NCBI GenBank assembly: GCA_943788985.1
Contig: CALSSJ010000021.1
Coordinates: 1 to 64,000, forward strand
DNA from: an uncultured Lentisphaerales bacterium
Lineage (GTDB): Bacteria; Verrucomicrobiota; Lentisphaeria; JABSQK01; UBA12247
Direction of reading: 5' to 3'
Length of the DNA: 64,000 nt
Part shown: in pieces, positions 2,542 to 34,333 of the stretch
Numbering within the stretch: the first letter of the stretch is position 1
How the letters are laid out: each line of letters begins with the position of its first letter
Made by a program: the position numbers and the translations under genes
The notes under the pieces: model-generated
Seen by the model: only the letters and a program-made list of their open reading frames with translations
Database searches by the model: none
Told to the model about the DNA's origin: nothing

Positions 2542-2561
2542 CTGGAAAGATGGCTAAACGC

Positions 2562-5500
2562 TCAGGGGGCGCCTGGCGAAAAGACGCCGCCGCTGGCGAC
2601 GGTAACGGTGCCGCCGATGGTGCCGGTGCCAGCAAGGGTGCCGCCGCTGGAGGACGTTGACGTCGCCGCTACCAGTTGTGCCAGTGACCGATAGTGTGCC
2701 GGCGCTGACCGTGGTTGTGCCGCTGTTGGTGCTGGTACCACTGAGGGTCTGGGTGCCGCTGCCAACTTTGGTAATACTGGTCGTGTTGTTGGTGCCGTCA
2801 GCAATCTCGCCAGAGAAGGTGCCGTCGTTGCCGGTATTGCCCAAGGTTACCAATGCTGTCCCGCCAGCAGTGCCATAGTTGCCCACGATGATGCCGGCTC
2901 CGTTCAAAACGCCCATCTGAAAGGTGCTCGCCAGGCTGGATTCGTTGGCCCAACCGATTCCGTTGCCTCCCTTGAGTTCCATGGTGCCATTGACTTCGAT
3001 ATCCGCATTCTGAAGCCCCGTGGTGTTGCCGCTGACGCCGATTCCGCTGCCGGAGTACGCGGTGGTACTGGCGATGCCGTTGACAATCAACGTGCCGGCA
3101 AAGGTCGAGTTGTTGTTACGTAGATTCACACCGCTGCCAGCATGGGTGGTGTTGATCGTCACTGTGGCAGTGGTGTCACCTCCCGTGCTCTTGAGCCCGC
3201 TGTCCGGATAGAACCCGCGCCCAGCTGCGGCAGTCGCATTGGAGGTATGATTGATCGTGACGCTTGCGCCAGTATCCACCGTGGTCGCAGCAGATGCCCC
3301 GTTGAAAACGAGCCATTGGTTCGGATTAGTATTCTGCAAGGTCGAGCCATCCTTGAGCAGGATGGTTTTGCCTGCCTGGGAATTTTGCAGATTCGTTGTG
3401 TGCGTCCAGGTAAGGATTGCACCGCTTTCAACCGTGGTCGCAGATTTGTAGTTGCTCGCTCCACTGAGGATTAATTCACCAGAGTTAATGGCGGTCGCAC
3501 CGGTATACTTGATCTGGCCGCCCTGAAGTGTCTGGTTGCCAGCCCCGGTCATATTCACCGTTACGGCCATGGTTCCGCCGCCACCCCAGGCGTTCCACAG
3601 GTAGCCGTTGAATACGTAGGCGCCAGAGCCGACCAGATTCACCGTGCCGGTGCCAGAATTGCTTGGTGTAATGCCGCCGAAGGAGGTGGCGGAGTTTGCA
3701 ATCATCAGGTTATCCTGACTGGTGCTGTCGATGCCTGCCCAGTGACTGGGTTGTGCCATTGAGGGCGAAGGCGGGCAGGCCGCCCTGGGTGCGGTCTCCC
3801 GAGAGCACGGTGTTGGCGCTGCCGAGCTGATTGTCGAGTGTAGGCCAGACGCGCGCGGAATTCGAGGAGTCCGAGTAGATGGCCAAGTTCCCGGGCACTG
3901 CCACGGCGCCCCCGGTCTTACTGAGCGTGAGGCTTCCCCCGTTGATTGTCGTAGTGCCGCTGTGGGTATTGGAAGTCGCACCCGAAAAAATGAGTGTAGC
4001 GAACCCATTCTTGGTGAAGTTTCCGGTCCCCCCCAATGGCACCGCTGATCGTGAGCGTTCGGCGGCCCAAGCTGTTGCCGTTGTCTTCAAAGCGTGGCGA
4101 ACCGGTCAGGGTGATGTCACCGGAGATTGAATGGGTGCTTGTGTTACCGGCACCCCAGTAGTTGCGGAACCGGGCGTTGTCGTCGAAGGCCATGGGGCTG
4201 GTGAAGCTGTGACCGCTGGCCCAGGTCATAATCTCTGCGTTGGTCATGACATGGACGTCATTGGCGGCGTTGGCCAATGCTGCATTGCCAAAGCCCAGCC
4301 ACTGCCCGGTATACACTGTCAGTGTGTCGATGTTGCTGGCACTGCCGGACCAGTTCCACCAGTTTTCGGTGCCGACTTTGATCAGGTTGAAGCCGCCACC
4401 GTTGATCGTGGCAGAGTTGTCGATGCGTCCGCCACCGCCGCCAATCTCCGCATCCGCTGCCAGGGTAATGGTGCTTCCGCCGGCAAATGAGGTACTATTC
4501 GCGGTGCTGTACAGGGCACCACGGCCGCCAGCGCCGTCGCGGCCGGTGCCGCTGATGGTAAAGTTCTCACCGGAGGTCGGGTCAAAGCTGGCGCCGTCTA
4601 GCTCTGCGCCGCTGCTGACCGTGGTCGCGCCAGCGGTCGAGCCGAGGGCAGAATTGTTCCCCAGTTTGAGAACGCCGCCGTCCACCGTGGTGCCGCCAGA
4701 GTAGGTATTGCTGCCGGAGAGGGTGAGCGTGCTGGAGTTGTCCTTTGTCAGCGTGCCCGTGCCACTGATTACGCCACTCATGGTTTGGTCGGCGCTGCTG
4801 TTGTAGACGAAGGCAAAGTTGTTGGCAATGGTGTTGGCGTAACTGCCGCTTTGCAACGTGCCCGAGCCGCCGATCTTGAGTGTCCCGGCACTAATGCTCC
4901 AAGGCGCGGTGTCAGTATTGGTGCCAGTCAGTTCCATCGTACCGGCACCTGCCTTAGTGATCAACCCTTCCCAGTTGGGTCTGATGCTGGATGAAATCAG
5001 CAGATCCGTTCCCGAGCCTGCCACCGTATCTTCTACCGTGACGGTTTCTGCAAAAGCAAAGCCAATCCTATTCGCGTTGATTGTCGCCAGGCCAGTCCCT
5101 GTCACGTTAATGCCATTGTTGTAGAGGAAGCCGCCAAACCCCGAATTTCCGTCTGCTGCGCCCTCCGAGGTCATCGTTCCTCCATTGTTAAAGGTGATGG
5201 CTGCGCTGACGGTGTGTACCAGGTCAGCAGTGGAATTGTCTGAATAGGTTCCGCCATTCTGGATCGTGAGAGCGGTGAGACCGTCCATCGCGTTGTGGCC
5301 GGACGCGGACAGTTTGGCAGTTCCGGTGCCGTCCACGGTAAGGGCGCCGGACAAGATATCGTCTCCCACCAAGTCCAACGTACCGGCATTGACGAGTGTG
5401 CCGGAGCTATAGGTATTGGCGCCCGCCAGCGTTAGCGTGCCCGCACCAGTCTTTGTGGTGAGGGTACTGCCGCCAAAGATGACGCCATTGACGGTAAGGT

Positions 5501-5981
5501 CATGGTTCAACCCGATATTGAAGGTCTCAGCGCTGCCAGCCTTCTGGATATTGCAGTTGATTACATCCGTCAAGCTGCCCGAAGTCACGGTCGACGTTTG
5601 AATGACGGATCCGCCGATGAAGAACTTGGTCGGACCGTTGATCGTGTAGCTGTTCTCGGTGCCCAATGTGTTGTTGAAGTAAAGGCCGTAGACGTAGTTG
5701 TAGGTGCCGCTGCCACGGTCAATCGTCGTATTTGCGGCACCCGACAACGCAGAATCGCGGAAGGTGACATTGCCATTGGGGAAATTTCCCGCGGCAGACC
5801 AGTTAGTACCATCGTAGAAATCCGTGGAGGTATTTCCCGTCCAAGACCGACTACCGTTCTGGCCGAGTGCTGGTGTGACACACAACACCAGCGCGGCGAG
5901 CGCGATGAGCAGGAGACTCCTGGCCGCGCCGACGACCGCCGCGCCACGACCGAGTGCGTCAGAGTGAATAAGTTGGCGCAT
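2562..5981 (-). CDS. Secreted beta-helix protein with autotransporter-associated beta-strand repeats; several frameshifts and apparently C-terminally truncated
   Basis: N-terminal signal peptide; repeated TKxGxGTLTLxGxNTYSGGTxVxxGTL motifs across ORFs 3918-5981, 3710-4090, 2554-4008 and 2562-2804. Confidence 0.85.
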
Positions 5982-6705
5982 GATTGGGCTCCGGCATTTA
6001 AATTGGTGTCACGTGCAACCGCTTTCGACGAGAAGCTAGTTGGCGCGGCAGCGATTGCAACACTTCCCCGCATAAATAATCGATTATTCGCTTGCCCTTC
6101 CTGCCGAACTCACCCGGAGTGCGCCACACGCAGCGCCGGGCATGCCCGAGGCGCTGAAGGCGGAGAAGCAGCCCGCGGTCAAAACGAAATAAAGGCCCGC
6201 GCGGAATTAACGTTGCGTTTTGCTGCAGGCCCTAAGGATGACGCATTCGTCTTTATCAGTGTCGGTCGGTGCCCATTTGCCGCTCCCTGCGGTCACTCCG
6301 GCCGGCAACAAAACAAGCGATAGGGTTTTATTCATGCCCCTCTATTAGCCGCCATTATCCGACCCGCGGGACAATAGGCGCAATTCCGTCGTTTGGATCG
6401 GGAATACCCAGACAGGCAAGCAACTGGCAATGGATCCTCCTTTCGGCGGCCATAGTCAGCCCAAAGCCATGGTGCAAAGGACGCCCCGCCGAGGGTTTTG
6501 GAGCGTGGTTGTTCCCATGAGCCAGTGACGCAACGGAGTTGCGTGGCGCGAAAAATGGAAATAACAAAGGACTATGTAGGACGCACTCTCCCAGGATGTT
6601 ACGATTCTGCACGTCATTGTTTAGGTCTGTGGGTGGCGAAGAGATGTGGAGGTTTGTACTGTGCATGAAATAGCATTCAGTCCGGGAGTTTCCAGAGAGA
6701 TCAAC

Positions 6706-8448
6706 GTGCAAAGAACGAACATCATTCTTGTCCTGACCGACGATCAGGGATACCCGCCTTTGGGCTGCCACGGGCACCCGACTGTGCGGACGCCACACAT
6801 TGACCGGTTCTATGGCGATGCGATCCGTTTCGAGCAGTTCCACTGCGGCACCACGTGCGCGCCGACGCGGGCAGGCTTGCTCACGGGGCATTACTGCAAT
6901 TCCACAGGCGTCTGGCACACCATTGGCGGACGCTCGTTGTTGCGCAAGGATGAATGGACGCTGGCCACGGCGCTGGCTGACGGGGGCTATCGCACCGGTA
7001 TCTTTGGCAAGTGGCACCTGGGCGATGACTACCCGTACCGTCCACAGGACCGGGGATTTCAGACGGCCGTCTGCCATGGCGGCGGTGGCATAGGACAGAT
7101 TCCCGATGCCTGGGGCAATGACTATTTTGATGACGTCTATGAAGTGAACGGCGTCAAGAAGAAGTTCGAGGGCTACTGCACGGATGTGTTTTTCGATGAG
7201 GCAATGCGCTTCATCGAGGAGAGCCAGGACACGCCGTTCTTCTGCTACATTTCGACCAATGCACCCCACGGTCCGCACAATGTCGAGCCGAAATACTACG
7301 AGCCCTACCTAGATACCTGCAAGACCGAAGACTATGCTCGTTTTCTGGGGATGATCACGAATATTGACGATAATTTTGGCAGGCTGCGGGCCAAGCTTCA
7401 GCAGTTGGACATCGAAGACAACACCCTACTCATGTTCATGAGCGATAATGGGCAGAGCGCAGCCGATGGCGGTGCCCCTGTCTACAACAGCAACATGCGC
7501 GGCCAGAAGGGTTCGCAATATGACGGCGGACACCGGATTCCGTTTATTGCCCGTTGGGCGGACGGGAAGTTGGTTGGCGGGAAGGAGATCAGTGAATTGA
7601 CCTCTTATGTCGACTTTATGCCGACCTTGCTGGATATCTGCGGGATCGAGACGCCAGCGGGCCAACCCGAGTTCCACGGGGAATCGCTGATGCCGCTGCT
7701 CAGAAACAAGAAACCGCAGGAGTACTGGGATAGCCGGGTGGTGGTTACCGATACCCAGCGCGTGCCCTACCCGCTCAAGTACCAGAAATCCAGCGTGATG
7801 AAGAACAGGTGGCGACTGGTGGACTGCCAGGAGTTGTACGACATTGGGGCCGATCCGTCGCAGGAGCATGACCTTGCCAGTGAGCACCCGGCGCTGGTGG
7901 CAGAACTGACCGCCGAGTATGAGACGTGGTGGGATGTCTGTGCCAAGCAATTTCACACGGATACGCCGATCAGCGTCGGAAATTTTCCAAGCCGGATCAA
8001 TGGCATGGATCTGCGGAATGAATCGGGCCTGTTCGTCTGCGGTCAGAAAGACGTCAGGGATGGGAAACAGGTGGCTGGCTACTTTTCGGTTTATGCCGAA
8101 GAGACCGGGACCTATGCCTTTGAGCTGTGCCGCTGGCCAGAAGAGGTGGATCTGCCGCTGACAGCCGCCATTCCAGAAGGGGAGGATGTGGAGATTCGGG
8201 AAGAATGCATTCCCGAAAACCGGCGTGATGCCTACCGCAGCAGCAATGAACTGGCGATCGATCTAGCGCAGTTTCAGATCAAGGACGTCTGCATTGAGGG
8301 CAAGGCGGTTCAGCCCACGGACCGGAGCGTCCGCTTCGAGGTGGAACTGGAAGGCGGCAAGCAGTACGAACTGCGGGCATTCTTCTACAACCGCAAGCAG
8401 TCGTTCAACACAATTCCGTATTACATCTACACATCAATGAGCGGGTGA
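6706..8448 (+). CDS. Arylsulfatase (Cys-type formylglycine sulfatase)
   Basis: NIILVLTDDQG, CAPTRAGLLTG, GKWHLG, SDNG, KGSQYDGGHRIP; likely GTG start at 6706. Confidence 0.93.
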   Translation: MQRTNIILVLTDDQGYPPLGCHGHPTVRTPHIDRFYGDAIRFEQFHCGTTCAPTRAGLLTGHYCNSTGVWHTIGGRSLLRKDEWTLATALADGGYRTGIFGKWHLGDDYPYRPQDRGFQTAVCHGGGGIGQIPDAWGNDYFDDVYEVNGVKKKFEGYCTDVFFDEAMRFIEESQDTPFFCYISTNAPHGPHNVEPKYYEPYLDTCKTEDYARFLGMITNIDDNFGRLRAKLQQLDIEDNTLLMFMSDNGQSAADGGAPVYNSNMRGQKGSQYDGGHRIPFIARWADGKLVGGKEISELTSYVDFMPTLLDICGIETPAGQPEFHGESLMPLLRNKKPQEYWDSRVVVTDTQRVPYPLKYQKSSVMKNRWRLVDCQELYDIGADPSQEHDLASEHPALVAELTAEYETWWDVCAKQFHTDTPISVGNFPSRINGMDLRNESGLFVCGQKDVRDGKQVAGYFSVYAEETGTYAFELCRWPEEVDLPLTAAIPEGEDVEIREECIPENRRDAYRSSNELAIDLAQFQIKDVCIEGKAVQPTDRSVRFEVELEGGKQYELRAFFYNRKQSFNTIPYYIYTSMSG

Positions 8449-8451
8449 TTT

Positions 8452-9170
8452 ATGCCGGCTGAATATTTTTTGAGCGTGATTGGCTTGGCCATCCTTGCCG
8501 CAGTGATGCCACAGGTTGCCGTTTCTGCCCCCAATCCAGACGCGCCCAACATCGTTCTGATTCTGGCCGATGACATGGGGATAGACTCCGTGCAAGCCCT
8601 CAATGAGAAGAGCAGCATCCCGCCCCCCCCAATCTCGACAAGCTCAAGCCGGGATCTGTGGTGGCTGATTTCCTGGCAAAACGCCCCGCCAAGACGCCCT
8701 TCTTTTACTGGTTCGGCAGTTTGGATCCGCACCGTCTGTACACCAGCGTCTCAGGGCGCAAGGCTGGCAAGAACCCGACATCTTTACGGGCCAAGAAAAG
8801 CGGGAACGGCCGTTCCTTTTGATTGTGCGTGAACGCCACGCTCACTATGCCCGCCTCGGCTCCCCGGGGCCGGCCTCGGCTACCCCGTCCGTGGCATACG
8901 CTCGGGTGACTTTCTCTACCTTCGGAACTTTGCCCCGGACCGCTGGCACTGTGGCAACCCGAAACTGGGATTTCCGGACAAGGACGACAGCCTGACAAAG
9001 AGAGTGATTGAGAAACTTGGTCCCGGAATTCCCAATTGGAAACATGCCTTCGGCGAGCGCCCGGCGGAAATGCTCCTCGGTGTCAATCGGCCCCTGACTG
9101 TGTCGACAACCTGGCCAAGGATAAAGCGCTCGCCTCCAAGACTTGGAAACGTTCTGTCTTGACTAACGAG
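8452..9170 (+). pseudogene. Sulfatase relic (N-terminal and C-terminal fragments only)
   Basis: Signal peptide plus PNIVLILADDMG at 8452-8640; FGERPAEML..PDCVDNLAKD-like C-terminal sulfatase segment at about 9040-9125; no CxPxR motif seen. Confidence 0.6.
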
Positions 9171-9277
9171 TGTAACTCAGAAAACATAAAATAAAGATTA
9201 CACAGCTACCAAAAACAATTACCGCTTCATTAGCTCTACTGGCACCAGTTGGACTCATAGCGGCCAAGGAGGTTCAA

Positions 9278-10309
9278 ATGCAAGGATCGATCACATTAGA
9301 GCCGCTTCCCCTGGCGGTGAAGGAAAACTACTACGCCAGGAAGCTGTCGCCGCAGCTGCTGGCTGATCCGGGGTATCGGATTTGGGGCGTAAGTGTCATC
9401 CAATGGACGGATGGAAAGTATCACGCTTACTATGCGCGCTGGCCCGAAAAACGAGGATTCCACGGTTGGCTGCGATACTCCGAAATTGCCCATGCGGTCT
9501 CCGACCATCCGGAGGGTCCCTTTGTCACCACTGGAACTGTGATCAAAAACCGTCATAACGATGGCTGGGATGTGGTGAATGCCCACAACCCCAGTGTGTG
9601 CGTCGCGGATGGCAAGATCGCCCTCTACTATATTTCGAACAACTTGAGTGAGGCGGCGAAGGCTGATGGGGAAGCCATGCCGCCCAGCGAGAAATGGCTA
9701 AACCGCAATGGTAAGCTCTTTCGCAATTCCCAGTGCATTGGCGTAACCATTGCCGACCAACCCGAAGGCCCGTTCATCCGCAACCAGGAGCCCGTGGTAC
9801 AGCCAGACAACCGCTTGTTTAAGAGTATCGCGGTGAACCCGGCGGTGCATTACCGGGAAGGCCGCTATACGATGATCATGAAGGGCGATGATGTAAGGCG
9901 CGAGGGCGTGTTCCGCATCCAACTCGTCGGGCATTCCGCACAGCCGAATGGTCCGTTTGTTTTTCAGGAAACACCCATCTACGACCAGTACCAGACCGAA
10001 GACGCCTGTATTTGGTACGACGAGACGAATCAACAATACAACAGCATCGTTCACGTCTTCGGCCCAACCTTGGCCCGACTGATCTCAAGTGATGGGGTGA
10101 ACTGGCGGGAAGCCGAACCATTCACCTTCATGACGAAGGAATTCGTGATGGAGGACGGAAGCATCTGGAAGCCAAGTCGTGTCGAGCGCCCCTTTGTGCT
10201 TACCGATGAGACGGGAAAACCCAAAATTCTCTACCTGGCAATATGGGACGCCGCCCACAAACTGAATGCGAATATTGCCGTCCCGCTCACGGTCAGAGAA
10301 GGAAGGTGA
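9278..10309 (+). CDS. Five-bladed beta-propeller glycoside hydrolase (GH43/GH117-like clan)
   Basis: DGKYHAYYARW, SEIAHAVSDHPEGPF, AHNP, VNPAV, TEDACIW, ERPFVL; AGGAGG RBS. Confidence 0.75.
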   Translation: MQGSITLEPLPLAVKENYYARKLSPQLLADPGYRIWGVSVIQWTDGKYHAYYARWPEKRGFHGWLRYSEIAHAVSDHPEGPFVTTGTVIKNRHNDGWDVVNAHNPSVCVADGKIALYYISNNLSEAAKADGEAMPPSEKWLNRNGKLFRNSQCIGVTIADQPEGPFIRNQEPVVQPDNRLFKSIAVNPAVHYREGRYTMIMKGDDVRREGVFRIQLVGHSAQPNGPFVFQETPIYDQYQTEDACIWYDETNQQYNSIVHVFGPTLARLISSDGVNWREAEPFTFMTKEFVMEDGSIWKPSRVERPFVLTDETGKPKILYLAIWDAAHKLNANIAVPLTVREGR

Positions 10310-15874: not shown

Positions 15875-17484
15875 TAGAAAGTACTTCCTGCGTATTTACG
15901 CCGCAACCGGTCCCGTACCAGAATGCCGGCCAGGTTTAGGACAACGACCACGACAATGAGCAAGAGGGTGGTCGCAAAGACCATCGGCAAGGCGGCTTCG
16001 GAGTCTGGTGACTGAAAGCCGAGGTCGTAGATGTGGAAGCCCAAGTGCATGAACTTCTGGTCCAGATGCACGAAGGGGTAGCTGCTGTTGATCGCCAGAC
16101 TCGGGGCGAGCTTCACGACGCCGACCAACATCAACGGGGCGACCTCCCCGGCGCCGCGGGCCATGGCCAGAATCATGCCCGTGAGGATACCGGGCAGCGA
16201 GGCGGGCAGAATAACGCGCTGGATTGTCTGCCACTTCGAGGCACCACAGGCGAGCGCAGCTTCACGAGTCCCACGCGGTACGGCGCTGAGCGCTTCTTCT
16301 GCGGCCACGATGACCACGGGTACGGTGAGCAGCGACAGGGTCAGCGAGGCCCACAGAATCCCGCCCGTTCCGAAGGTGGGTGTCGGTAGCGTGTCCGCGA
16401 AAAACAGGCGGTCAATGCCGCCGCCGACGAAGTAGACGAAAAAGCCGAGGCCAAAGACGCCAAAGACGATTGAGGGCACGCCCGCCAGGTTGTTCACGGC
16501 GATCCGTACACTCGTGAGCAGCGGTCCGGTCCGGGCGTATTCGTGGAGGTAGATTGCCGTGATCACGCCGAATGGCGTCACTGCCAAACTCATGAAGATG
16601 GTCATGATGACCGTCCCGAAGATAGCGGGAAAGACCCCGCCCTCGGTGTTGGCTTCACGCGGTGCGTCCAGCAAGAAGACCTTCGCGTTGTGCAGGAAAC
16701 GTCCACAGCGCGCGCTCAAGCCCATGGCGTTGGGCCGATAAAAGGAGACGATGTGCCCGATGGCTACGCTGCGCTCGCGGCCGTCTGAGATCTCGTAGAT
16801 GAGGTGGGTTTGGGTGGCCAAGTCTCGCAACTTGCGCGCCTTCTGCGCCAGCGCTTCGTACTCGCCTGTGAGGCTGGCAAGTTCGGCGGTGATTGCGGAG
16901 TTCGCAGGCTTGCGCTTGAGCCGCTCGATACGATTGTTGACGCGCCCGATCTCGCTCTTCTCAATCTCTGTCACCTCAGCACGCAACGCCGTGGCCTCGT
17001 CGACGAACTCTTGGAGCTGAGGATCATCCGCTTCGCCGACCAGCGAAATCGGCTCAGCATCCGCTTGCTCGATGCGCAAGGCCCGGCCAAAAACCGAACC
17101 AAACTCCAGGCGTTCGATCTTCAGGATGTCCAGCGGTTGGCTCTGCTCGCCGATCGCAGCCTCCGGAACATAGACGAAGGAGTGGCCAAAGGCGTCGCGG
17201 TTTGCCGTGTAGAGCTGCCATTCTTGATCACCGCTGGTGGCTTGCTTCTGCTTCTTTACGATCTCACCGATCAGCTGCCGCTCGCTCCCATTCTCGCTTA
17301 CCTGCAACTGCACAACGCGCTTGGGCCAGAAGACCGAGATGCCGTTCACCAAGATCAAGCCGAGCAGAAAGATGACCATCGCGATGCCAGTGGCCAAGCC
17401 CATACTGGAGAGCCAGACAAGTGGCTCGCCGGCAGCGGCTTGGCGCTGAAGCATGGGGTTTTGCGGGGCATCAGGAGCTGCCAT
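15874..17484 (-). CDS. pstA: Phosphate ABC transporter permease (long form)
   Basis: [47 protein letters not shown]. Confidence 0.95.
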
Positions 17485-17486
17485 AA

Positions 17487-19754
17487 TCACACAGTCTTAT
17501 ATTTGTTGCGCAGGTGCTGGCGCAGGATTTCGGCGAAGGTGTTGAGCACGAAGGTCATCGCGAACAGCAGCATGGCGCCGAGAAAGAGGGCGCGATACAA
17601 GGTCCCGCTGTGGGGGGCCTCGGGCAGCTCGACTGCGATGTTCGCCGAGAGCGTGCGCATGCCGGTAAAAATACTCATGTCCATTATCGGGGTGTTGCCG
17701 GTGGCCATCAGCACAATCATCGTCTCGCCAACCGCCCGGCCCAGACCGATGATCACAGCTGAAAAGATGCCAGCAGCGGCCGTCGGCAAAACGATGCGAA
17801 ACGCGGTCTGCCAGCGACTCGCCCCCAGAGCCAAAGCGGCGGAGCTAATGTCCCGCGGCACGTTCGACAGGGAATCTTCGGCAATCGTAAAGATGATCGG
17901 AATCACGGCAAAGCCCATGACAAAGCCCACGATCAAGGCATTGCGCTGTTCATAACGCCCGCCCCAAAAATCAGGCCACCAACGCCGAAAGTCGGCCACT
18001 TGCGCGCCCGTTTCCGGGTCGCTCACCACAAACACCGCCCGTTCCAGAATAGGACCAAACCAAACGGCGAGGCAGACGCAGCCGATCAGGACCGGGATGA
18101 AGATCAAGAACTCGTACCCTGGCTTGCAGAGCACGCGCACCTCGGGCGGCATCCGGGTCCAGAGGAAGCCGATCAGCATCGACGCCAAGGGCGCGGTTAT
18201 CACAAAGACTAAAACCGCTGGGACCCGATTCTCCAACAAGGGCGCTAGCCAGAGCGCAGCCAGAAATCCCAGTACGACAGACGGAATCGACGCCATCGTC
18301 TCCATGGTCGGCTTCACCACGGCGCGAAAACGGGGGTGCTGAAACTGGGAAGTGTAGAGCGCTGCCAGCAGCGCGATCGGAATCGCGAACAGCATTGCAA
18401 ACACGGTCCCCTTGATGCTGCCGAGAATCAGTGGAATCATCGACAGCTTGGGCTCGAATTCATCGCTGCCCCCAGTGGACTGCCAGACGTAATCCGGCCG
18501 CGAGGCACCCTCATACCAAACCTTGCCGAAGAAGGCCTGCATGCCCGCTTCCGGGTGTGGATCGTGCAGTTTGTAGAGATAAAGCGTGCCCGCCTGGTCC
18601 AGCGTCAGTAAGCGATCATGCTTGCTCGACAACGCCACATGAGCCGCCTGATAACTCTGCGCGGCCTCCCAACGAACAGTCTCGGTCGTCCCATGACGCA
18701 GACTGAGCGTCTCGCCGCTGGCCATGAGAAAGGACTTGTTGCGCTGGCTGGCAGCATAGGCGCTGGCTGCACCGGGCAGCGGGGCAAATGACTTGGTCTG
18801 CCCGAACAGACGCTCCGCGTCCTTGGCGGGCATGTACAGGCTGAAAACACGATTGACACCAGCTGCATTGGTCACCACCAGCGAGTTGCCGCCAAGCAAA
18901 AAGTCCAGCGACGCGATCTCCTGGGTTGCGGAGTCCGCAAACGGAAAAAAGGTCTGCATCTTGACGAATTCTCTGCCGTCTCGCCGCAAATAGCAGATGC
19001 TGCCGGAATCCGTCGCGACGGCAATAAGCTGGCCGCCAGCGCCGACTCGCACAAAACGGGGCGTGCCTTCGAGTTCCCCCGAAATATCCTGATTGCCCGC
19101 GACCTTGACCTTACCTGCGCCCATCAGGCTGCGCTTTTGCTTCAGCGTCACGGCATGCGTCACGCGTTTGCCGTCGGCCTCTTGTACCAGAACCGCGACC
19201 TTCAGGGATTCGCCATCGACATAGTCTAGCGCGATCACCGGCACATCCGCCAAGCCGCCCTTGTAGCGCTTGCCCACCGTCACGTCCTGGCCAATGCTGC
19301 GCTGCTCGTCGTCGCCAAAGCTCGCCGCGTAGTTCAGATCCACCAAGCTAAACCCGCCCTTGTCCGTGCCCACCGCCAACTGCTGCGTCTTGGGCACATA
19401 GGCGAAGGCGCTGGGCTGCGCGTCATCAGCCAGATTTATCGGCACCACGCTGCGCTCGCCGCTGGGAATCGCGATGAAGTGGAGCTGACCTTCTTTGTCC
19501 AACACAAAAGGCAGCTCGGTCCACTGATCCACGCCCAGCATGAGGGCATCCGGCACCCCCGTCTCCAGCTCCTGCACCAGGCTCACTTCGGCGCCGCGAA
19601 AGAGCGGCAGCACCTGCCAGAAGATAAACACAAAGATCCCCATCACTGCTGCGATGACCGCTAAACCACCCACTTTGATGAAGTGAGTCATGAAGCGATC
19701 TATAAGCAGCGTGATGCGACGTGGCTGGAAACGTTGGGAGTCGTCTGGGTTCAT
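17487..19754 (-). CDS. pstC: Phosphate ABC transporter permease with large periplasmic domain
   Basis: WQSTGGSDEFEPKLS, MASIPSVVLG, GRAVGETMIVLMATGN, RTLSANIAVE. Confidence 0.95.
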   Translation of the reverse strand: MNPDDSQRFQPRRITLLIDRFMTHFIKVGGLAVIAAVMGIFVFIFWQVLPLFRGAEVSLVQELETGVPDALMLGVDQWTELPFVLDKEGQLHFIAIPSGERSVVPINLADDAQPSAFAYVPKTQQLAVGTDKGGFSLVDLNYAASFGDDEQRSIGQDVTVGKRYKGGLADVPVIALDYVDGESLKVAVLVQEADGKRVTHAVTLKQKRSLMGAGKVKVAGNQDISGELEGTPRFVRVGAGGQLIAVATDSGSICYLRRDGREFVKMQTFFPFADSATQEIASLDFLLGGNSLVVTNAAGVNRVFSLYMPAKDAERLFGQTKSFAPLPGAASAYAASQRNKSFLMASGETLSLRHGTTETVRWEAAQSYQAAHVALSSKHDRLLTLDQAGTLYLYKLHDPHPEAGMQAFFGKVWYEGASRPDYVWQSTGGSDEFEPKLSMIPLILGSIKGTVFAMLFAIPIALLAALYTSQFQHPRFRAVVKPTMETMASIPSVVLGFLAALWLAPLLENRVPAVLVFVITAPLASMLIGFLWTRMPPEVRVLCKPGYEFLIFIPVLIGCVCLAVWFGPILERAVFVVSDPETGAQVADFRRWWPDFWGGRYEQRNALIVGFVMGFAVIPIIFTIAEDSLSNVPRDISSAALALGASRWQTAFRIVLPTAAAGIFSAVIIGLGRAVGETMIVLMATGNTPIMDMSIFTGMRTLSANIAVELPEAPHSGTLYRALFLGAMLLFAMTFVLNTFAEILRQHLRNKYKTV

Positions 19755-19819
19755 GAAGACAAACTGGCCTTGATCGGTGGCGACGCGCTGCGCCTCCCGC
19801 AAGGGAAGCGTGTGTATTG

Positions 19820-28036: not shown

Positions 28037-28168
28037 CGCTGCACTATAGGCGAAATCGCCGGATATTCCGCAGCTCAGGATTGCTTTGGTTAGTTGACTT
28101 TTTGCCGCAATGCTAGACCTTTTCAGTTTCGCCCGCACGAATCCGCAAACGACCACCTGGAACTACCC

Positions 28169-29191
28169 ATGCCACTTGTCCCAATGCGCACGCTGCTGGA
28201 TCATGCAGCAGAGAATGATTACGGAATTGCCGCCCTCAATGTGAATAACATGGAGCAAATCCAGTCCATCATGGAAGCGGCGGAGGAGACCAACTCTCCC
28301 GTCATCATCCAGGCATCACGTGGAGCACGCTCCTACTCTCAGGACGCCTATCTGCGCCACCTCATGCTGGCTGCAGCAGAGCTCTATCCGCACATCCCGA
28401 TCGCGATGCACTTGGACCACGGAAACTCCGCCCCCACCTGCATCAGCGCCATTCAGCAGGGCTTCACGTCCGTCATGATGGACGGATCCCTCGATGAAGA
28501 CGGCAAGACCCCGAACAGCTACGAAGCCAACGTGGCCGTGACCCGCCGCGTCGTCGACGTTGCTCACGCCTTTGGTGTCACTGTTGAAGGCGAGCTTGGC
28601 TGTTTGGGTGGTATCGAAGACGGACACGGAGCTGGCCTCAGCGAAGAGGAAGCTGCCGACCACCTCACCGACCCTGATGAAGCCGGTGATTTTGTCGCCC
28701 AAACCGGCGTGGACGCACTCGCTGTCGCCATTGGCACCTCCCACGGCGCCTACAAGTTCTCCTCAGAGCCCACCGGCGAAGTCCTGCGCATGGATGTCAT
28801 TGAAGAGATCCATCGCCGCCTGCCGAACACGCACATTGTGATGCACGGCTCCTCCAGCCTGCCACAGAGCCTGCGCGACATCATCAACGAGTATGGTGGT
28901 GAACTCACTCCAGCTTGGGGCGTTCCCGTCGAAGAAATTCAGCGCGGCATCAAGCACGGCGTCCGCAAAATCAACGTCGACACCGACAATCGTCTTGCCA
29001 TCACCGGTGCCATCCGCAAGGTCTTCGCCGAGAAGAAGGAAGAGTTCGATCCGCGCAAGTATCTCGCACCGGCGCGCGAGGCAATGAAGGAACTGTGCAA
29101 GGATCGCATGATCGCCTTTGGTCAGGCCGGCAACGCTGACAAGATCAAGCAAGTCACGCTTTCCCAGATGGTTAGCTACTACAGCGGCTGA
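28169..29191 (+). CDS. fba: Class II fructose-bisphosphate aldolase
   Basis: [43 protein letters not shown]. Confidence 0.97.
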
Positions 29192-29203
29192 TCTTCGCCG
29201 ATC

Positions 29204-29239
29204 GAATCGTGCAACATCATTCTTGACGTTGCACGATTC
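29204..29239 (+). terminator. 16-bp stem-loop after fba, containing a possible -35 element (TTGACG) for the tRNA
   Basis: GAATCGTGCAACATCA/TGACGTTGCACGATTC with one mismatch. Confidence 0.55.
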
Positions 29240-29274
29240 CCGGCTATTGGTGTCAGCCTGAGCTGACGCCATCA

Positions 29275-29348
29275 GCGGGTATAGCATAGTGGTAATGCGA
29301 CAGCTTCCCAAGCTGTTGAGGGGAGTTCGATTCTCCCTACCCGCTCCA
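29275..29348 (+). tRNA. tRNA-Gly(CCC)
   Basis: GCGGGTA..TACCCGCTCCA acceptor stem, ACAGC-TTCCCAA-GCTGT anticodon arm, GTTCGATTC T-loop. Confidence 0.97.
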
Positions 29349-29597
29349 CCTTCCCCCTTCGAGGCACGCAAGTCTCGTAATTGCAGTAGGTTGCACTTGA
29401 ATGCAGGCCAAGACCAGCGAGATGTGCCACTTGCGTCAAAAGTGGCACAATGACCGAAGCTGCAAAACATAAATGACCAAAACTGCAAAACAGTAGAGGC
29501 TGCTCACCGGGGCCTTTCCTGTAGCAGGACGAAATTATTTTGATTGGGCTACGTAGTCTATGGCAGGAAAATGCCATAAAAACTATGAAGGCCCCAA

Positions 29598-30137
29598 ATG
29601 AACGTACTTGCACTCGATTGGCTCAGATGCGCCTACCCCCTCTCACAAGAGGCCGTCCGCCGAGCGACAGTTATCCGGCGCGGATGCCGCCTCGCACACA
29701 ATGTCACTGTCGCTTCGCTTGGTGAGGAACAGAAAGAGCGAGCGAAGCTGATCGCCACTCTTAACGCCGCCATTGATTCTCATGCGGCGGAACTGCGTGG
29801 GATCGAAGAGAAAGCAGCTGGAAACATAGGGGCAAAAGCACTGCTGGGGGCCGACATTCCTGCTCCTATCCTGATCACCACCGCTCTCCTTGCTTCCGCC
29901 AGGCTTCATTGCAGCATTAAAGGATGTATAGGCTCTGAATTGGAAGTTTGTGAGATGGCAGCTGGGATAGATCTTGAGGCCTTGCTGATGGTCCAGGCGG
30001 CATTCGATGCCTCTGGCGTGCTTAGGCCACATGTTACTTTTTCTAGAGGTCAACATGGTGCTCCTGTGCTGATCGATAGCGCTTTCTGCAAGATCGTCCA
30101 GTCCCGTACAAAGCAGCGACGGGTCACCTATGTCTAA
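29598..30137 (+). CDS. Hypothetical protein
   Basis: 179-aa ORF whose stop overlaps the next start (ATGTCTAA). Confidence 0.6.
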   Translation: MNVLALDWLRCAYPLSQEAVRRATVIRRGCRLAHNVTVASLGEEQKERAKLIATLNAAIDSHAAELRGIEEKAAGNIGAKALLGADIPAPILITTALLASARLHCSIKGCIGSELEVCEMAAGIDLEALLMVQAAFDASGVLRPHVTFSRGQHGAPVLIDSAFCKIVQSRTKQRRVTYV

Positions 30138-30570
30138 TTCCAGAATGAAACCAGTCTGGGAATTCTCCCTGCGGCGGAAAAAGGTGGGTGAAGCACTTGG
30201 GCCACTCAATACTCCAGCAGATGCTTTGGAGATGCTGCTCGGGCTGGAACTGCATGCACAGGGGCACGAGCACATAGTGTCAGTAGCACTCAGTCAAACG
30301 AACCACGTCTTGGGCATATACACTGTTGCACTGGCCCCGTGGTTGCGCACCGGAGAGGTCTTCCGTGCTGCAATAGTCATGGAAGCTTCGAGGGTTCTTC
30401 TAGCGCATTCCAAGCCCTCTGGCCCGCTCACTCCATCAGCGGTAGATTTTGCGATGATAATGAAGCTTGCAGAGGTCGGTGATCTCATCGGCATTAAATT
30501 AATCGACCATCTCCTCCTTGGTGACCCCGAGGCATATTTCAGCTTTCGCGAAGCTGGCCACCTCTGTTGA
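30130..30570 (+). CDS. RadC-like JAB-domain protein
   Basis: EH, EVFRAAI, LAHSKPSG.LTPS..D, GIKLIDHLLLG, YFSFRE.G. Confidence 0.88.
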   Translation: MSNSRMKPVWEFSLRRKKVGEALGPLNTPADALEMLLGLELHAQGHEHIVSVALSQTNHVLGIYTVALAPWLRTGEVFRAAIVMEASRVLLAHSKPSGPLTPSAVDFAMIMKLAEVGDLIGIKLIDHLLLGDPEAYFSFREAGHLC

Positions 30571-30586
30571 ATCTGGAATACAAAGG

Positions 30587-31063
30587 ATGAGACCGCCAAT
30601 CATCTTCCTGGATATTGATGGCGTGCTACTTCCTGATCAGGTCCAGACTTCCCCGGCCCTGCTGGATGAGATGACCGACTATCAGCCCTATGATCCGGGC
30701 TGTGTCGAAGCGATGAATGCAATTATCGCGGCCATCAGTCCCGTCATTGTCCTGCACTCCAGTCGGCGCTATCAGTACAGCCAGATCGAGTTCTGTCAGA
30801 TCTTCATTGCATCTGGAATACTGACTGCCAGCCCAATCGTCCTCCCTACATATGGCCAGGACGCAGGACTGTTCTTCTCGTCTCCCAACAGGGAAAAGGA
30901 GCATGACATTTCTGAGTATCTGCGACGGCAGAAAATCTGTTGGCATGTGGTTCTCGACGACGAGGTCCTGAATGTGGATAGGCTACATCTGATTTGCCCG
31001 GACGTTGGGCTCACGGTCGCAGACGCGAGGACCATCATCGCCATGCTGACAGTAGATGCGTAA
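30587..31063 (+). CDS. HAD-superfamily phosphatase (HAD_SAK_2 / Swiss-army-knife RNA-repair type)
   Basis: IIFLDIDGVL, IVLHSSRR, REKEHDI..YL, VVLDDE, GLT; AAAGGA RBS. Confidence 0.8.
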   Translation: MRPPIIFLDIDGVLLPDQVQTSPALLDEMTDYQPYDPGCVEAMNAIIAAISPVIVLHSSRRYQYSQIEFCQIFIASGILTASPIVLPTYGQDAGLFFSSPNREKEHDISEYLRRQKICWHVVLDDEVLNVDRLHLICPDVGLTVADARTIIAMLTVDA

Positions 31064-31180
31064 TACAAGGGTGGCTATCGATCCAGACATCCACTCTGTC
31101 GGCAATTCTACGAGGAGGGTGGACGATTCGTCCTCTTCGTGGGTATAATGAGGAGGATTCCAAAAAGCTAGAAGAAGAAA

Positions 31181-32170
31181 ATGAGAAAAAGAATGAGCGT
31201 CTATCAACCTTTCCGTTCCCATATGATATGCCGTCCCTGCACACCGCCCAAGAAAGTCTGGCAACCTGACGAGACAGATGCCTGACGCCTGAAAGTTCTA
31301 GCAGCAGACCTCGCCTCTCTTCACCCAGTGAAGCGAAAGGCACCACGCCAAGTTGCGCTGGAAGTGTTAGCCGCGCGTCGAACTGGATCATTGCACGCGG
31401 CGTCACTAGATATCAGCAACTGCTACGAAGCGATACCGCATCGCCATTGCCTTCACGCGGTCGAAGAACTTGATGGTCGCACAGGACTGATCCGGAATGT
31501 CGCAAGTTTTCTGAGTACGCCTCACATCGCGATGAATGGTGATCTACTCTCCGCTACAGTGAAGGGCCTTCACCCGGGAACCTCTCCAAGCAATATTCTT
31601 GCGGAGATGGTATTGGCACCTGTCGACCGGGCGTTCTTGGGCGAGCCAGTGCAGTACTTTCGTTACGTCGATGATATTCTGCTCCTTGGCAGGACTGAGG
31701 CAGCCACAAAAGATGGTCAGGCCCTGCTTCTACGTCTTCTCGGTGAGTTCGAATTGGAAGCACGAACCAAGCACGCCTGTCCTCCCATGCTGTTTGAGCA
31801 CCTGGGCTTCCGTCATTACCGCAGGCACGGTCGCCCGGAAATGAAAGTTTCAGCCTCGAGAGTCAAGAAATTCCAAGGAAATATGAGGAGCCTGTTCCCG
31901 GACCGCGAAACAGCCGATCGGCGCGCGGCAAGATTCGCCGCAATTGCCTGTGGGGCTTCCTCATGGTCGTGACTACGGTACTACAGCGCAGGGTCGCTAG
32001 CCCCTATCGGTTACTTGGCGCGATGGACTCGAGAACGCTATGGCGCACATCACCCAAATCTCTTGCAGTGGGCGCGTCAGCATCGGAAGAATGCCATAGT
32101 AGCTGTCCAAGCGGCGAGAGAGTTCGTGGGAACACTCCCAAATGCCAAAGAGGAGATACTGTTGGGCTAG
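31181..32170 (+). CDS. Divergent group II-like reverse transcriptase; single frame with two in-frame TGA codons (31283, 31970), either a pseudogene or read through
   Basis: YQP..P..D (RT1-2), LDISNCYEAIPH (RT3), GLHPGTSPSNILA (RT4), FRYVDD (RT5), FEHLGF (RT7), *LRYY (thumb). Confidence 0.85.
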
Positions 32171-32447
32171 CCCCCTCATCTTTTTCGCAAGGCCAGCGTG
32201 ATGAGGCGCCGTCGGCCGTCAGAAACTGGCTGTGCCAGCTTCTGGTCTGAGTACTACCAGTTTCAAGCATGACATCCGTGATGTTGCGAACTCCACAACC
32301 TGAGCGCCACGCAACTGGCTCAATGCGTTCGGCCCCACCGCCATCATGATCGAGCCTATCTGGTGGCTCGATGACGGCATTTATAAAGTCGCCGCAACCC
32401 GGCTGCCGATCGGCCTTGGCTATTGGATCTACGGAGTCGGATAACTC

Positions 32448-32476
32448 AAACCTGGGACCGATACTCCGGTCCCAGG
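32448..32476 (-). terminator. Terminator hairpin downstream of the fucosidase gene
   Basis: CCTGGGACCG/CGGTCCCAGG perfect 10-bp stem followed by TTT on the minus strand. Confidence 0.7.
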
Positions 32477-32495
32477 CTTGGGTGCCCTAGGCAGG

Positions 32496-34208
32496 CTATT
32501 TTCCGTACACGCGGACGTGCTTCAGCGACACCGGCGTCTCAGTCCCGTCTTTCGCCACAAGCTTAAGTGCCCAAAGGCGCCGGCCCGGGACATCAATCCC
32601 GGCGTGGAAGTGAGTCACTTTCACCAGCCACTCCTGTTGCCACTCCTCAGCTTCCCAGAGCTTCTGCCAGGTCTTGTCATCGTCTGTGATGTACAAGGCA
32701 AGTCCCTCGCTCTGGTGTGCGTCGGGAAGGTTCTCAATCACGACCGCCTTGACGTCGCGGAACCGCTTCCAATCAATCCGCAGTGACGGAGTCTCGCCTG
32801 CAGCCAGCGCGGTCAACGTAGCAGCTTCGACTTCTGCGACAAGTTCACCGTACTGAGAGCCACCATCTCCAGCCATGCGCGGCAAGCCGACAAGCACGCC
32901 CACTTCCAACGGCTGGTCGATGGTCAACTCCACGACCGTCACGGGCGCATCACGGTCTGCCTCTGCCACGCGGACCGTCAGCTCATCAGCGGTCTGCACG
33001 AAGGTGGCAGGCTGGCCGTTTAGGGCGCGAGCAGCCAGGACCTTGCGCGGCAACGGGTCAAATGCGACAGCGCCGTCCGTCCATTCATAGACGTGTAGGT
33101 ACATCTTCGTGCCTTTATGGCAACTTCCGCCCCAGGCGCCGTTGTTGTAAGGGCCGCTGCGCGTCCCGTAGATCGCGTCTCCGTACGTCTTCAACCACTC
33201 ACCTGCGGCACGAGCCACCGCTGCTTCGCCTTCGGCAAACGTGCCGTCGGGTCTAGGACCAAAGTTCAACAGCAGGTTGCCGCCACCAGTAGTGCAACTG
33301 ACCAACATCTTAATACACTCTTCAGGCCCCTTGAAGCCGTCCTCTCCGCGATACGACCAGCCCTGCCCGACGTGGATGCAGGATTCCCAGTCATTCTCGA
33401 GATCCATCGCCCCGATGGTGCCTTCCGGCGTATAGAAATCACCATCCGTAGCTTTCTGTAGCTCCGGAGTCGCCGGGCCCTGATCTTCAGGAGTCTTGGG
33501 GCCGCAGAATCTGGCCGCGCGGTTGTTCACTAGCAACTCCGGCTGGTTGCGGTACATCATCGCGTATAACTCGTCGAAACGCCATTTTCCCCAATCCTGG
33601 CCGCCGACGTGGTCATACCACATCATGTCGACCTTGCCGTATTTGGTAAGCAACTCGTCAACCTGCCCCATGTACCAATCGTCATACTTTTTGTTGTCGC
33701 CGACTAGGTAGTCCGGGTGATACCAGTCTCGGGTAGAGTAGTAGAGACCGACCTTGATCCCATGCTTGTGGCCAGCTTTGACGAACTGCTCGACAATGTC
33801 TTGCCCATACGGGGTTGCGCTTATGCTGTAATCGCTCAGATCCGTGTCGAACATCGAAAAGCCATCATGATGCTTGGTAATCAGCACCATGTACTTCATC
33901 CCGGATTCTTTTGCGAACTCGGCCCAAGCATCGGCATCAAACTTAACAGGGTTGAATACTTTGAAGTAATTGTCGTACTCGGCGTCGTGCTTGTCGTCGC
34001 TGGGATCCGGGACACCAATGTCCCATGGACGTTGGGCGTTTCTTCCCCAGCCTATTTCCCGCTGCCCCACAGAACAGGGTCCCCAGTGGATAAACATGCC
34101 AAATTTCGCGTCGCGAAACCACTGCATGCGGGCATCGCGCTGTTCTGTCGTCTCATTGATCTGCGGGACATGGCCCATGTCTGCGGGAAAGTGCGATTCG
34201 ATACTCAT
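32496..34208 (-). CDS. Alpha-L-fucosidase (GH29) with a C-terminal beta-sandwich
   Basis: WFRDAKFGMFIHWG, KHHDGF, GLYYS..DW, MWYD, VNNR, WESC, GGNLLLN.GP. Confidence 0.93.
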   Translation of the reverse strand: MSIESHFPADMGHVPQINETTEQRDARMQWFRDAKFGMFIHWGPCSVGQREIGWGRNAQRPWDIGVPDPSDDKHDAEYDNYFKVFNPVKFDADAWAEFAKESGMKYMVLITKHHDGFSMFDTDLSDYSISATPYGQDIVEQFVKAGHKHGIKVGLYYSTRDWYHPDYLVGDNKKYDDWYMGQVDELLTKYGKVDMMWYDHVGGQDWGKWRFDELYAMMYRNQPELLVNNRAARFCGPKTPEDQGPATPELQKATDGDFYTPEGTIGAMDLENDWESCIHVGQGWSYRGEDGFKGPEECIKMLVSCTTGGGNLLLNFGPRPDGTFAEGEAAVARAAGEWLKTYGDAIYGTRSGPYNNGAWGGSCHKGTKMYLHVYEWTDGAVAFDPLPRKVLAARALNGQPATFVQTADELTVRVAEADRDAPVTVVELTIDQPLEVGVLVGLPRMAGDGGSQYGELVAEVEAATLTALAAGETPSLRIDWKRFRDVKAVVIENLPDAHQSEGLALYITDDDKTWQKLWEAEEWQQEWLVKVTHFHAGIDVPGRRLWALKLVAKDGTETPVSLKHVRVYGK

Positions 34209-34333
34209 TGCTGCGTCCGGGTGTTTGGGATGATTTGCTAGAGAATGTGGAGTAAAAGTGGTTAGATCCCGAGGATCTCGTCCAGTTGAGTTTTGTAGCC
34301 GGCCCATGGGGCGATGCTCCCGGGGGTTCGGGC

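Follow-up and report, generated by a model that had tools for sequence, protein, structure and literature searches.

We have analysed a 3.1-kb stretch (the islet) that lies between a tRNA-Gly(CCC) gene and a fucosidase gene in a contig of an uncultured Lentisphaerales bacterium (CALSSJ010000021.1, assembly GCA_943788985.1). The window, that is, the whole stretch of DNA examined, comprised positions 1 to 64,000 (64,000 nucleotides, nt) of the forward strand, and all coordinates below refer to it. The islet carries four co-oriented genes, for an orphan protein of 179 amino acids (aa) here called orf179, a RadC-like JAB domain protein, a HAD phosphatase-like protein and a divergent reverse transcriptase (RT), which an initial annotation had put forward as the best candidate for a new system in the window. 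This promise did not hold, as the RT gene is dead and its companions are ordinary genes of mobile elements. The stretch is probably the remnant of the cargo of a mobile element that has no integrase, made up of a plasmid- or phage-type orf179-RadC-HAD unit and, separate from it, a recently inactivated orphan RT of the UG/Abi kind without SLATT. Two observations carry this reading. The RT gene is interrupted by two TGA codons, TGA being a regular stop of this genome, and the locus is devoid of the SLATT effector that is required in DRT10, the nearest relative characterised by experiment. Of the two options left by the initial annotation, the fallback of an eroded remnant fits the two nonsense codons and the lack of SLATT and of an integrase, while an unclassified RT system paired with the HAD protein found no support.

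We propose that the region from the tRNA-Gly(CCC) to the fucosidase would be a small leftover of horizontally acquired cargo. The three-gene unit (the orphan orf179, a RadC-like JAB protein with a degenerate metal site and an intact phage-type HAD_SAK_2) would be one part of it, and the RT gene, with UG17/DRT10, UG26 and Drt3a as its putative nearest kin, would be another, behind a spacer that bears a hairpin. If they are active, the HAD and RadC proteins may act on nucleic-acid ends or on nucleotides for the element from which they came, independently of the RT. In its present form the locus should yield no full-length RT and no cDNA. What is new here is a variant of the already known defence-type UG/Abi RTs, and a four-gene system is not established. 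Unusual cDNAs have been reported as products of DRT2, DRT9 and DRT10, the last of which has also been connected with how telomerase arose (PMC12632851). The phylum is poorly sampled, and an RT from it with a branching point close to UG17, UG26 and UG3, but without a good fit to any of these groups, would give this radiation one more data point and could carry a different effector logic. With a dead gene and one known locus this is not a new system, and its value at present is as a pointer toward intact alleles in related genomes.

The interrupted reverse transcriptase gene and its relatives

The RT pseudogene has 329 codons (31181-32170, forward strand), and its translation shows in-frame TGA triplets at codon 35 (31283-31285) and codon 264 (31970-31972), with the frame open for 34 codons ahead of the first and for 65 codons past the second. 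The longest intact piece (31328-31972) codes for 214 aa from a GTG start; the finger strands at the N-terminus and the final 65 residues are missing from it. TGA is the commonest stop of the window, where it terminates 15 of the 30 frames of at least 300 codons, and it also ends the RadC open reading frame (ORF). Public data contain a separate protein cluster for the 214-aa fragment, with 10 distinct member sequences found on 3 contigs. The second stop is thus present in more than one assembly, which makes an isolated sequencing error at this position less likely. For comparison, the clusters of the HAD protein and orf179 have 4 and 6 distinct members on 35 and 24 contigs, and the larger number of RT variants might reflect relaxed constraint. 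When 38 relatives were searched against the region by tblastn for remnants of an RT N-terminus, only chance-level matches appeared outside the RT frame. We also considered that the second TGA could be a mutated conserved Trp, part of the "GW" motif of UG17 in a MAFFT alignment, and dropped the idea as the hidden Markov model (HMM) alignment gave it no support.

The description of this RT as compact and divergent agrees with our data, GLHPGTSPS, YVDD and LGF all being read in the translation. Neither NAxxH nor VTG, the retron signatures named in the initial annotation, was seen when the translation was read by eye. Pfam recognised RVT_1 (E 8.4e-10), and the best PADLOC model was RT_UG17 with 74 bits (profile positions 76-303 of 429), followed by UG26 (61.5) and Drt3a (56.8). 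With an HMM that we built from 36 UG17 RTs of related loci the score was 78 bits, over positions 52-305 of 443, whereas bona fide members score 174-530 bits with RT_UG17. The last 84 residues had no similarity to the UG17 HMM (E 0.29) and were modelled with low confidence. Among the NCBIfam models, the group II RT/maturase TIGR04416 reached 54.9 bits (cut-off 300) and retron St85 19.5 (cut-off 235).

An exhaustive phmmer search of 1.84 billion representative proteins gave 307 matches at E<=1e-3, of which only the fragment of the window itself fell under 1e-30; the closest protein after it had 28% identity (E 1.6e-14). The 28 best of these representative matches comprised 22 UG17, 3 UG26, 2 Cas1-RT fusions and 1 generic RT. 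No second copy of the RT lineage was found in these proteins, in 5.8 billion word-indexed clusters or in 185,579 species genomes, and the comparison with phages gave no match for the RT. We then used the motif YFRYVDDI and an alignment of 8 rows to collect relative loci from the 185,579 species genomes, and kept the best 80 of 232 confirmed RT relatives. Over residues 38-239 the best of these RTs had 33% identity to that of the window, and locally the identity reached at most 36% in any of them. PADLOC classified 26 of the 80 locus RTs (8 UG17, 15 UG19, 2 Drt3a, 1 UG32/21).

The initial annotation had called for the RT to be placed in a phylogeny of prokaryotic RTs. We have done so with a quick IQ-TREE run on 54 rows, namely the window RT, 48 of the 80 locus RTs (36 UG17, 9 UG19, 2 Drt3a and 1 UG32/21; the other 32 were omitted for size alone) and 5 representative proteins. 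The UG17 label came from PADLOC for 7 of the 36 rows, and from a SLATT_5 neighbour together with length for the rest. A starred branch (97) set the G2L and CRISPR-RT rows, which served as outgroup, apart from the window RT, UG17, UG26, Drt3a and UG19, and it is by this grouping that the window RT belongs to the class 2 neighbourhood of the UG/Abi radiation. Within it the terminal branch of the window RT is long (3.08 changes per column), which leaves its exact position unsure, and the RT falls together with UG26 and a starred UG17+Drt3a clade (99 by SH-aLRT) without a fixed order among them. An approximately unbiased (AU) test did not reject a tree in which the window RT and UG17 form one clade (p 0.19). 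The view that the RT is unclassified is in keeping with a best model (UG17) of only 74 bits and with this long branch near UG26 and UG17+Drt3a. Judging from its sequence, it is an orphan of the UG/Abi class 2 neighbourhood that is assignable to no defined UG group.

Linkage to SLATT, RadC and HAD genes

The presence of RadC and HAD genes beside the RT suggested at first that the three were functionally paired, and a tabulation of their co-occurrence with homologues of the RT had been advised. Having tabulated the 80 relative loci, we found neither gene at any of them; their RTs have a different partner, SLATT_5, which adjoins the RT in 41 of the 80 loci, including all ten of the best-matching ones. 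Pfam detected no RadC or HAD among 124 ORFs from 75 of the 80 loci, each no more than 420 nt away from the RT. Over a wider range (5206 ORFs of at least 50 aa, up to 8 kb on each side of the 80 loci) phmmer gave no match to the window RadC and HAD proteins and one marginal match to orf179 (E 0.0023). The same RadC query recovers the PDB entry 2qlc at 1e-12 and 1555 plasmid records, and is therefore sensitive enough for a linkage test of this kind. As a positive control, an HMM made from 37 SLATT neighbours recognised SLATT at 47 of the 80 loci; in the window it found none among 124 six-frame pieces of 28901-33000 (best E 0.11), and Pfam detected no SLATT in the four islet ORFs or in 30 other frames. 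As far as sequence comparison goes, the relatives lend no support to an RT-HAD-RadC system. The 117-nt spacer with a hairpin and a promoter-like site that sets the RT apart from the coupled trio is suggestive along the same lines. We found no description of an RT-RadC-HAD association in the literature searched, and in the main texts of Mestre 2022 (PMC9226505) and of the DRT10 preprint (10.64898/2026.04.29.721553) neither "RadC" nor "phosphatase" occurs.

Among the closest known systems is DRT10, that of the UG17 RTs. These RTs are reported to be strongly tied to SLATT (Mestre 2022, PMC9226505), and DRT10 to need its non-coding RNA (ncRNA), SLATT and RT, all three, with a C-terminal Ser or Tyr acting as the primer of DNA synthesis (PMC12632851; preprint 10.64898/2026.04.29.721553). 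The core of the window RT (fingers and palm, with YFRYVDDILLL) is closest to UG17. However, ca. 50 N-terminal and ca. 140 C-terminal residues of UG17 are without counterpart in it, the C-terminal region of the priming Ser/Tyr described in PMC12632851 included, and it does not reach a full-length match at the level of the members of the profile. Furthermore, the gene is broken by two stops, and the locus has neither a SLATT_5 gene nor a remnant of one; as to the ncRNA, none was recognised in the islet with Rfam. UG26 and DRT3a (UG3) resemble the window RT as its second and third PADLOC models and as its neighbours in the tree, but its scores are far under those of their members. Besides, the islet holds just one RT, with no UG8 (Drt3b) partner as in DRT3, and no YcjD-like nuclease, which has been reported beside some UG26 RTs (Mestre 2022, PMC9226505).

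The upstream trio looks like common mobile-element material. The RadC-like protein (146 aa, 30130-30570) matched PF04002 with 72.5 bits (gathering threshold 22.1, E 3.7e-20) and phrog_10276 (E 2.7e-20), and by tblastn it hit 1555 plasmid records, of which 1165 (75%) were conjugative. RadC domains have been described in proteins of conjugative elements and prophages, and a role in nucleic-acid processing was proposed for them (Iyer et al. 2017, PMC5512222). Although alike in family, plasmid homologues and phrog, the window protein differs in that its HxH is degenerate and in that it lacks partners such as those described in that article, ArdC and helicases among them. When aligned with the Chlorobium RadC (2qlc_A), its metal motif reads H-S-K-P-S-G...S-A-V-D instead of H-N-H-P-S-G...S-N-A-D. 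The second His of HxH is thus replaced by Lys, and the motif (HxH...S..D, whose residues bind the metal in JAMM domains) is degenerate.

The HAD protein (158 aa, 30587-31063) matched PF18143 with 59.7 bits (gathering threshold 27.5, E 5.3e-16) and phrog_1818 (E 7.5e-14), and its translation has both the DxD motif (FLDIDGV) and the later LDDE. Its Atlas model is good, with a predicted local distance difference test score (pLDDT) of 0.84, and the Atlas clusters closest to it consist of HAD_SAK_2 proteins that stand alone, have 146-164 aa and resemble it in structure (TM 0.84). Of the members whose taxon is known, 50-77% are viral. It had no match in plasmids by tblastn, found only its own cluster in the word-indexed search, and gave 3 weak partial matches in phages by tblastn, including the Vibrio phages nt-1 and CZ01. 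Unlike these stand-alone phage proteins, it sits in a bacterial chromosome beside RadC and an RT pseudogene. There is no kinase or ligase of an RNA-repair set near it, either in the ORFs and frames of the islet or among 35 large ORFs of the window. As for orf179 (29598-30137), no match was obtained in Pfam, NCBIfam, PADLOC, PHROGs, plasmids (tblastn) or Atlas, the word-based protein search returned its own cluster only, and its Atlas model is poor (pLDDT 0.39). It is nevertheless likely to be read on the forward strand, since its GC contents at the three codon positions (GC1/GC2/GC3 0.65/0.48/0.53) are coding-like and those of an antisense ORF of 210 aa are not.

Two of the relative loci deserve a comment of their own. 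In one from Alicyclobacillus, a Drt3a-type RT lies beside a divergently placed ORF of 689 aa with a weak RVT_1 match, a pair (5647-7713 on the minus strand and 7782-9119 of the locus) that fits the two-RT layout of DRT3. In the other, a UG17 locus from a metagenome-assembled genome of Nitrospirae, an exonuclease gene of the RNase_T type (8991-9548) follows the RT after 7 nt, which is noteworthy since the host exonuclease SbcB has been reported to control the toxicity of DRT10 (preprint 10.64898/2026.04.29.721553).

Competing explanations

There are several other ways to account for the islet. It could contain a genuine RT defence system that has escaped sampling and that is seen here as a recently inactivated copy. 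A compact RT similar to those of UG/Abi class 2, perhaps with an ncRNA in a spacer, would act together with the HAD protein as a phosphatase that processes ends, a RadC-like JAB protein without catalytic activity and orf179, with these three in the place of SLATT. We grant this a small chance. The four genes are co-oriented and share a lowered GC3, the RT frame is free of frameshifts with its catalytic motifs intact and its read-through model is a complete RT fold, and the long end branch without decay by indels implies a long functional history. Along similar lines, the flanking spacers fold better than their shuffles (z-score -3.73 for 29349-29597 and -2.82 for 32171-32495), and effector swapping is known among other UG groups (Mestre 2022, PMC9226505). 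However, a single locus is known across all the proteins, clusters and genomes searched, RadC and HAD genes were found beside none of the relatives, the RT and the trio are separated by a hairpin and a promoter-like site, RadC has lost one metal ligand, and the RadC and HAD families are common among plasmids and phages that lack RTs. One could go further and speculate, with little confidence, that this is the first sampled member of a compact (ca. 330 aa) UG/Abi class 2 lineage of Planctomycetota/Verrucomicrobiota-like hosts that never used SLATT, its cDNA being handled by the upstream HAD phosphatase and a non-catalytic RadC-like binder; the copy found here would have been knocked out recently and intact alleles would persist in unsampled relatives. 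An unlikely but different history is that of a decayed DRT10 (UG17), in which SLATT, the ncRNA and both RT termini were lost and the HAD/RadC unit was inserted at the position of SLATT. UG17 is the top PADLOC model and makes up 22 of the 28 best representative matches, a common clade is compatible with the AU test, and in the commonest UG17 layout, both among our relative loci and in the preprint (10.64898/2026.04.29.721553), SLATT is directly upstream of the RT, where the window has HAD. On the other hand, the unconstrained tree puts the RT outside the well supported UG17+Drt3a clade, only the central part of the profile aligns and the C-terminal 84 residues do not, no trace of SLATT is left, and the open, indel-free frame argues against the neutral decay that such a divergence would need.

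We find it very improbable that the RT is fully expressed through recoding or read-through of TGA and that the system is active as it is. It is true that both interruptions are TGA, that the frame is open before the first and after the second, and that MAFFT sets the second under the Trp of the UG17 motif. Yet TGA is the most used stop here and also ends RadC, the HMM fails to support that placing, and Rfam detected no SECIS-like element or any other RNA family. Just as improbable is a remnant of a group II intron, a retron, a diversity-generating retroelement (DGR) or a CRISPR-associated RT, in agreement with the initial annotation, which had set the RT apart from all four. The top NCBIfam match is the group II RT/maturase and the top structural match a group II intron RT, but the scores of this model and of retron St85 are far below their cut-offs, and no intron, msr/msd or other such Rfam match was obtained. 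Moreover, the starred branch separates the RT from the G2L and CRISPR-RT outgroup, there is no long pair of template and variable repeats for a DGR (the longest direct pair in 29200-32700 has 25 nt at 72% identity), and no Cas domain occurs among the 35 large ORFs examined.

The preferred reading, that of a cargo remnant with a separate RT, has to face several observations that weigh against it. There is not a single frameshift over the 990 nt of the RT frame, the Asp of motif A (LDISNCY) and YVDD are intact, and the coding-like excess of GC1 over GC2 continues past the second TGA. With each TGA set to X, AlphaFold gave the read-through RT a mean pLDDT of 80.4, high for ca. residues 10-240 and low past 240. 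This model folds as a complete RT, for which the top Foldseek match was the GsI-IIC group II intron RT (TM 0.74), with DRT2, G2L4, retron, DRT9 and TERT structures also matched. The RT was presumably functional until recently, given the absence of frameshifts, the intact catalytic residues and the preserved coding-type composition; its decay may be slight and recent, and to call it a remnant may be an overstatement. Nor are the upstream genes degraded: the orf179, RadC and HAD ORFs are all intact and tightly coupled, and the numbers of contigs on which the orf179 and HAD clusters were found indicate that a lineage has kept the islet stably. The relatives of the linkage test are distant and belong to other UG groups, and their SLATT partnership therefore says little about the partner of the lineage in the window. 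Finally, no direct repeat of the tRNA 3' end was found at the far border and likewise no integrase, and an exact scan of the species-genome contigs with 45 nt of the tRNA gave 0 matches, leaving no empty site for comparison. Insertion of this cargo at the tRNA is consequently deduced from composition and gene content only, the two features that point to a foreign origin of the islet.

Layout of the islet and its chromosomal surroundings

Every detail observed in the initial annotation was upheld when we re-examined the gene layout, domains, motifs and composition. The left border is the tRNA-Gly(CCC) gene (29275-29348, forward strand; ARAGORN, and Rfam RF00005 at 69.1 bits), upstream of which lies a gene for a class II fructose-bisphosphate aldolase (28094-29191, PF01116). 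The four co-oriented ORFs start ca. 250 bp past the tRNA, the first of them at 29598 after a spacer of 249 nt (29349-29597, forward strand) with several hairpins and two direct repeats. The repeats are nearly identical and 21 nt long, at 29449-29469 (AATGACCGAAGCTGCAAAACA) and 29472-29492 (AATGACCAAAACTGCAAAACA), 23 nt apart. This motif is present in exactly 2 copies in the whole window and 0 of 100 shuffles gave 2 matches; the repeats could be sites bound by a regulator of the islet operon. The first three genes are tightly coupled, as had been noted. The end of orf179 overlaps the RadC start by 8 nt (ATGTCTAA), and the HAD ATG (30587) follows 16 nt after the RadC TGA. All of the islet is more AT-rich than its flanks, with a GC of 0.51-0.55 (0.57-0.63 in the flanks) and a GC3 of 0.53-0.64 (0.67-0.71 in three flanking genes).

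HAD stops with TAA (31061-31063) and is followed by the 117-nt spacer (31064-31180, forward strand), in which strand folding gave a hairpin of 17 bp (31107-31143). Overlapping it, a promoter scan detected TGGACG-18-TATAAT at 31120-31149; with 2 sites found and 2.0 expected by chance this match is weak alone and suggestive at most. As a whole this spacer has a fold z-score of -1.58, and here, as for the other two non-coding stretches, folding rests on one sequence each. HAD and the RT share one reading frame, which would happen by accident in one case out of three; the 39 codons that separate them include just two stops, the HAD TAA at 31061 and a TAG at 31169. From the former to the latter there are 36 codons in frame, without similarity to the UG17 HMM. 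Past the RT there is a non-coding tail of 325 nt (32171-32495), with a hairpin (32444-32483) formed by an inverted repeat, that ends where a convergent gene for an alpha-L-fucosidase (32496-34307, PF01120, E 1.2e-77) has its stop codon.

The lack of any visible integrase, group II intron RNA or cas gene, reported from the start, was confirmed with Pfam on the ORFs and frames, with Rfam and with the large ORFs. No integrase or other Pfam domain was found in the 30 spacer and antisense frames of the islet, and no group II intron RNA or other Rfam family besides the tRNA was detected at E<=1 in 28500-33500. The sole repeat that touches the tRNA has 11 nt with one mismatch, its second copy being inside the RT, and a nucleotide search of the islet against plasmids in distant mode gave no match. 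Pfam detected no further mobile or defence domains in 35 of the 48 large ORFs of the window, the remainder of which is ordinary chromosome of a Planctomycetota/Verrucomicrobiota-like kind, with PSCyt1/PSCyt2/PSD1, DUF1501, PATR repeats, a pst-phoU-phoR/B cluster and lptF/G.

Some of these chromosomal genes have peculiarities of their own. Between 54151 and 58188 the planctomycete-type genes appear fragmented, with possible frameshifts or further pseudogenes. The DUF1501 ORF at 55095-56021 matches only profile positions 93-389 of 390, and in the PSCyt2+PSD1 ORF at 56884-58188 the PSD1 match is limited to profile positions 2-136 of 244; this ORF directly adjoins one of 172 aa (56369-56884). Two minus-strand PATR (autotransporter passenger) ORFs of 484 and 687 aa at 2557-5981 overlap by ca. 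90 nt and may be a single frameshifted gene. In the pst cluster (15877-19802) the phosphate-ABC permease ORFs are unusually long, 538 and 771 aa, with BPD_transp_1 found only in their C-terminal parts.

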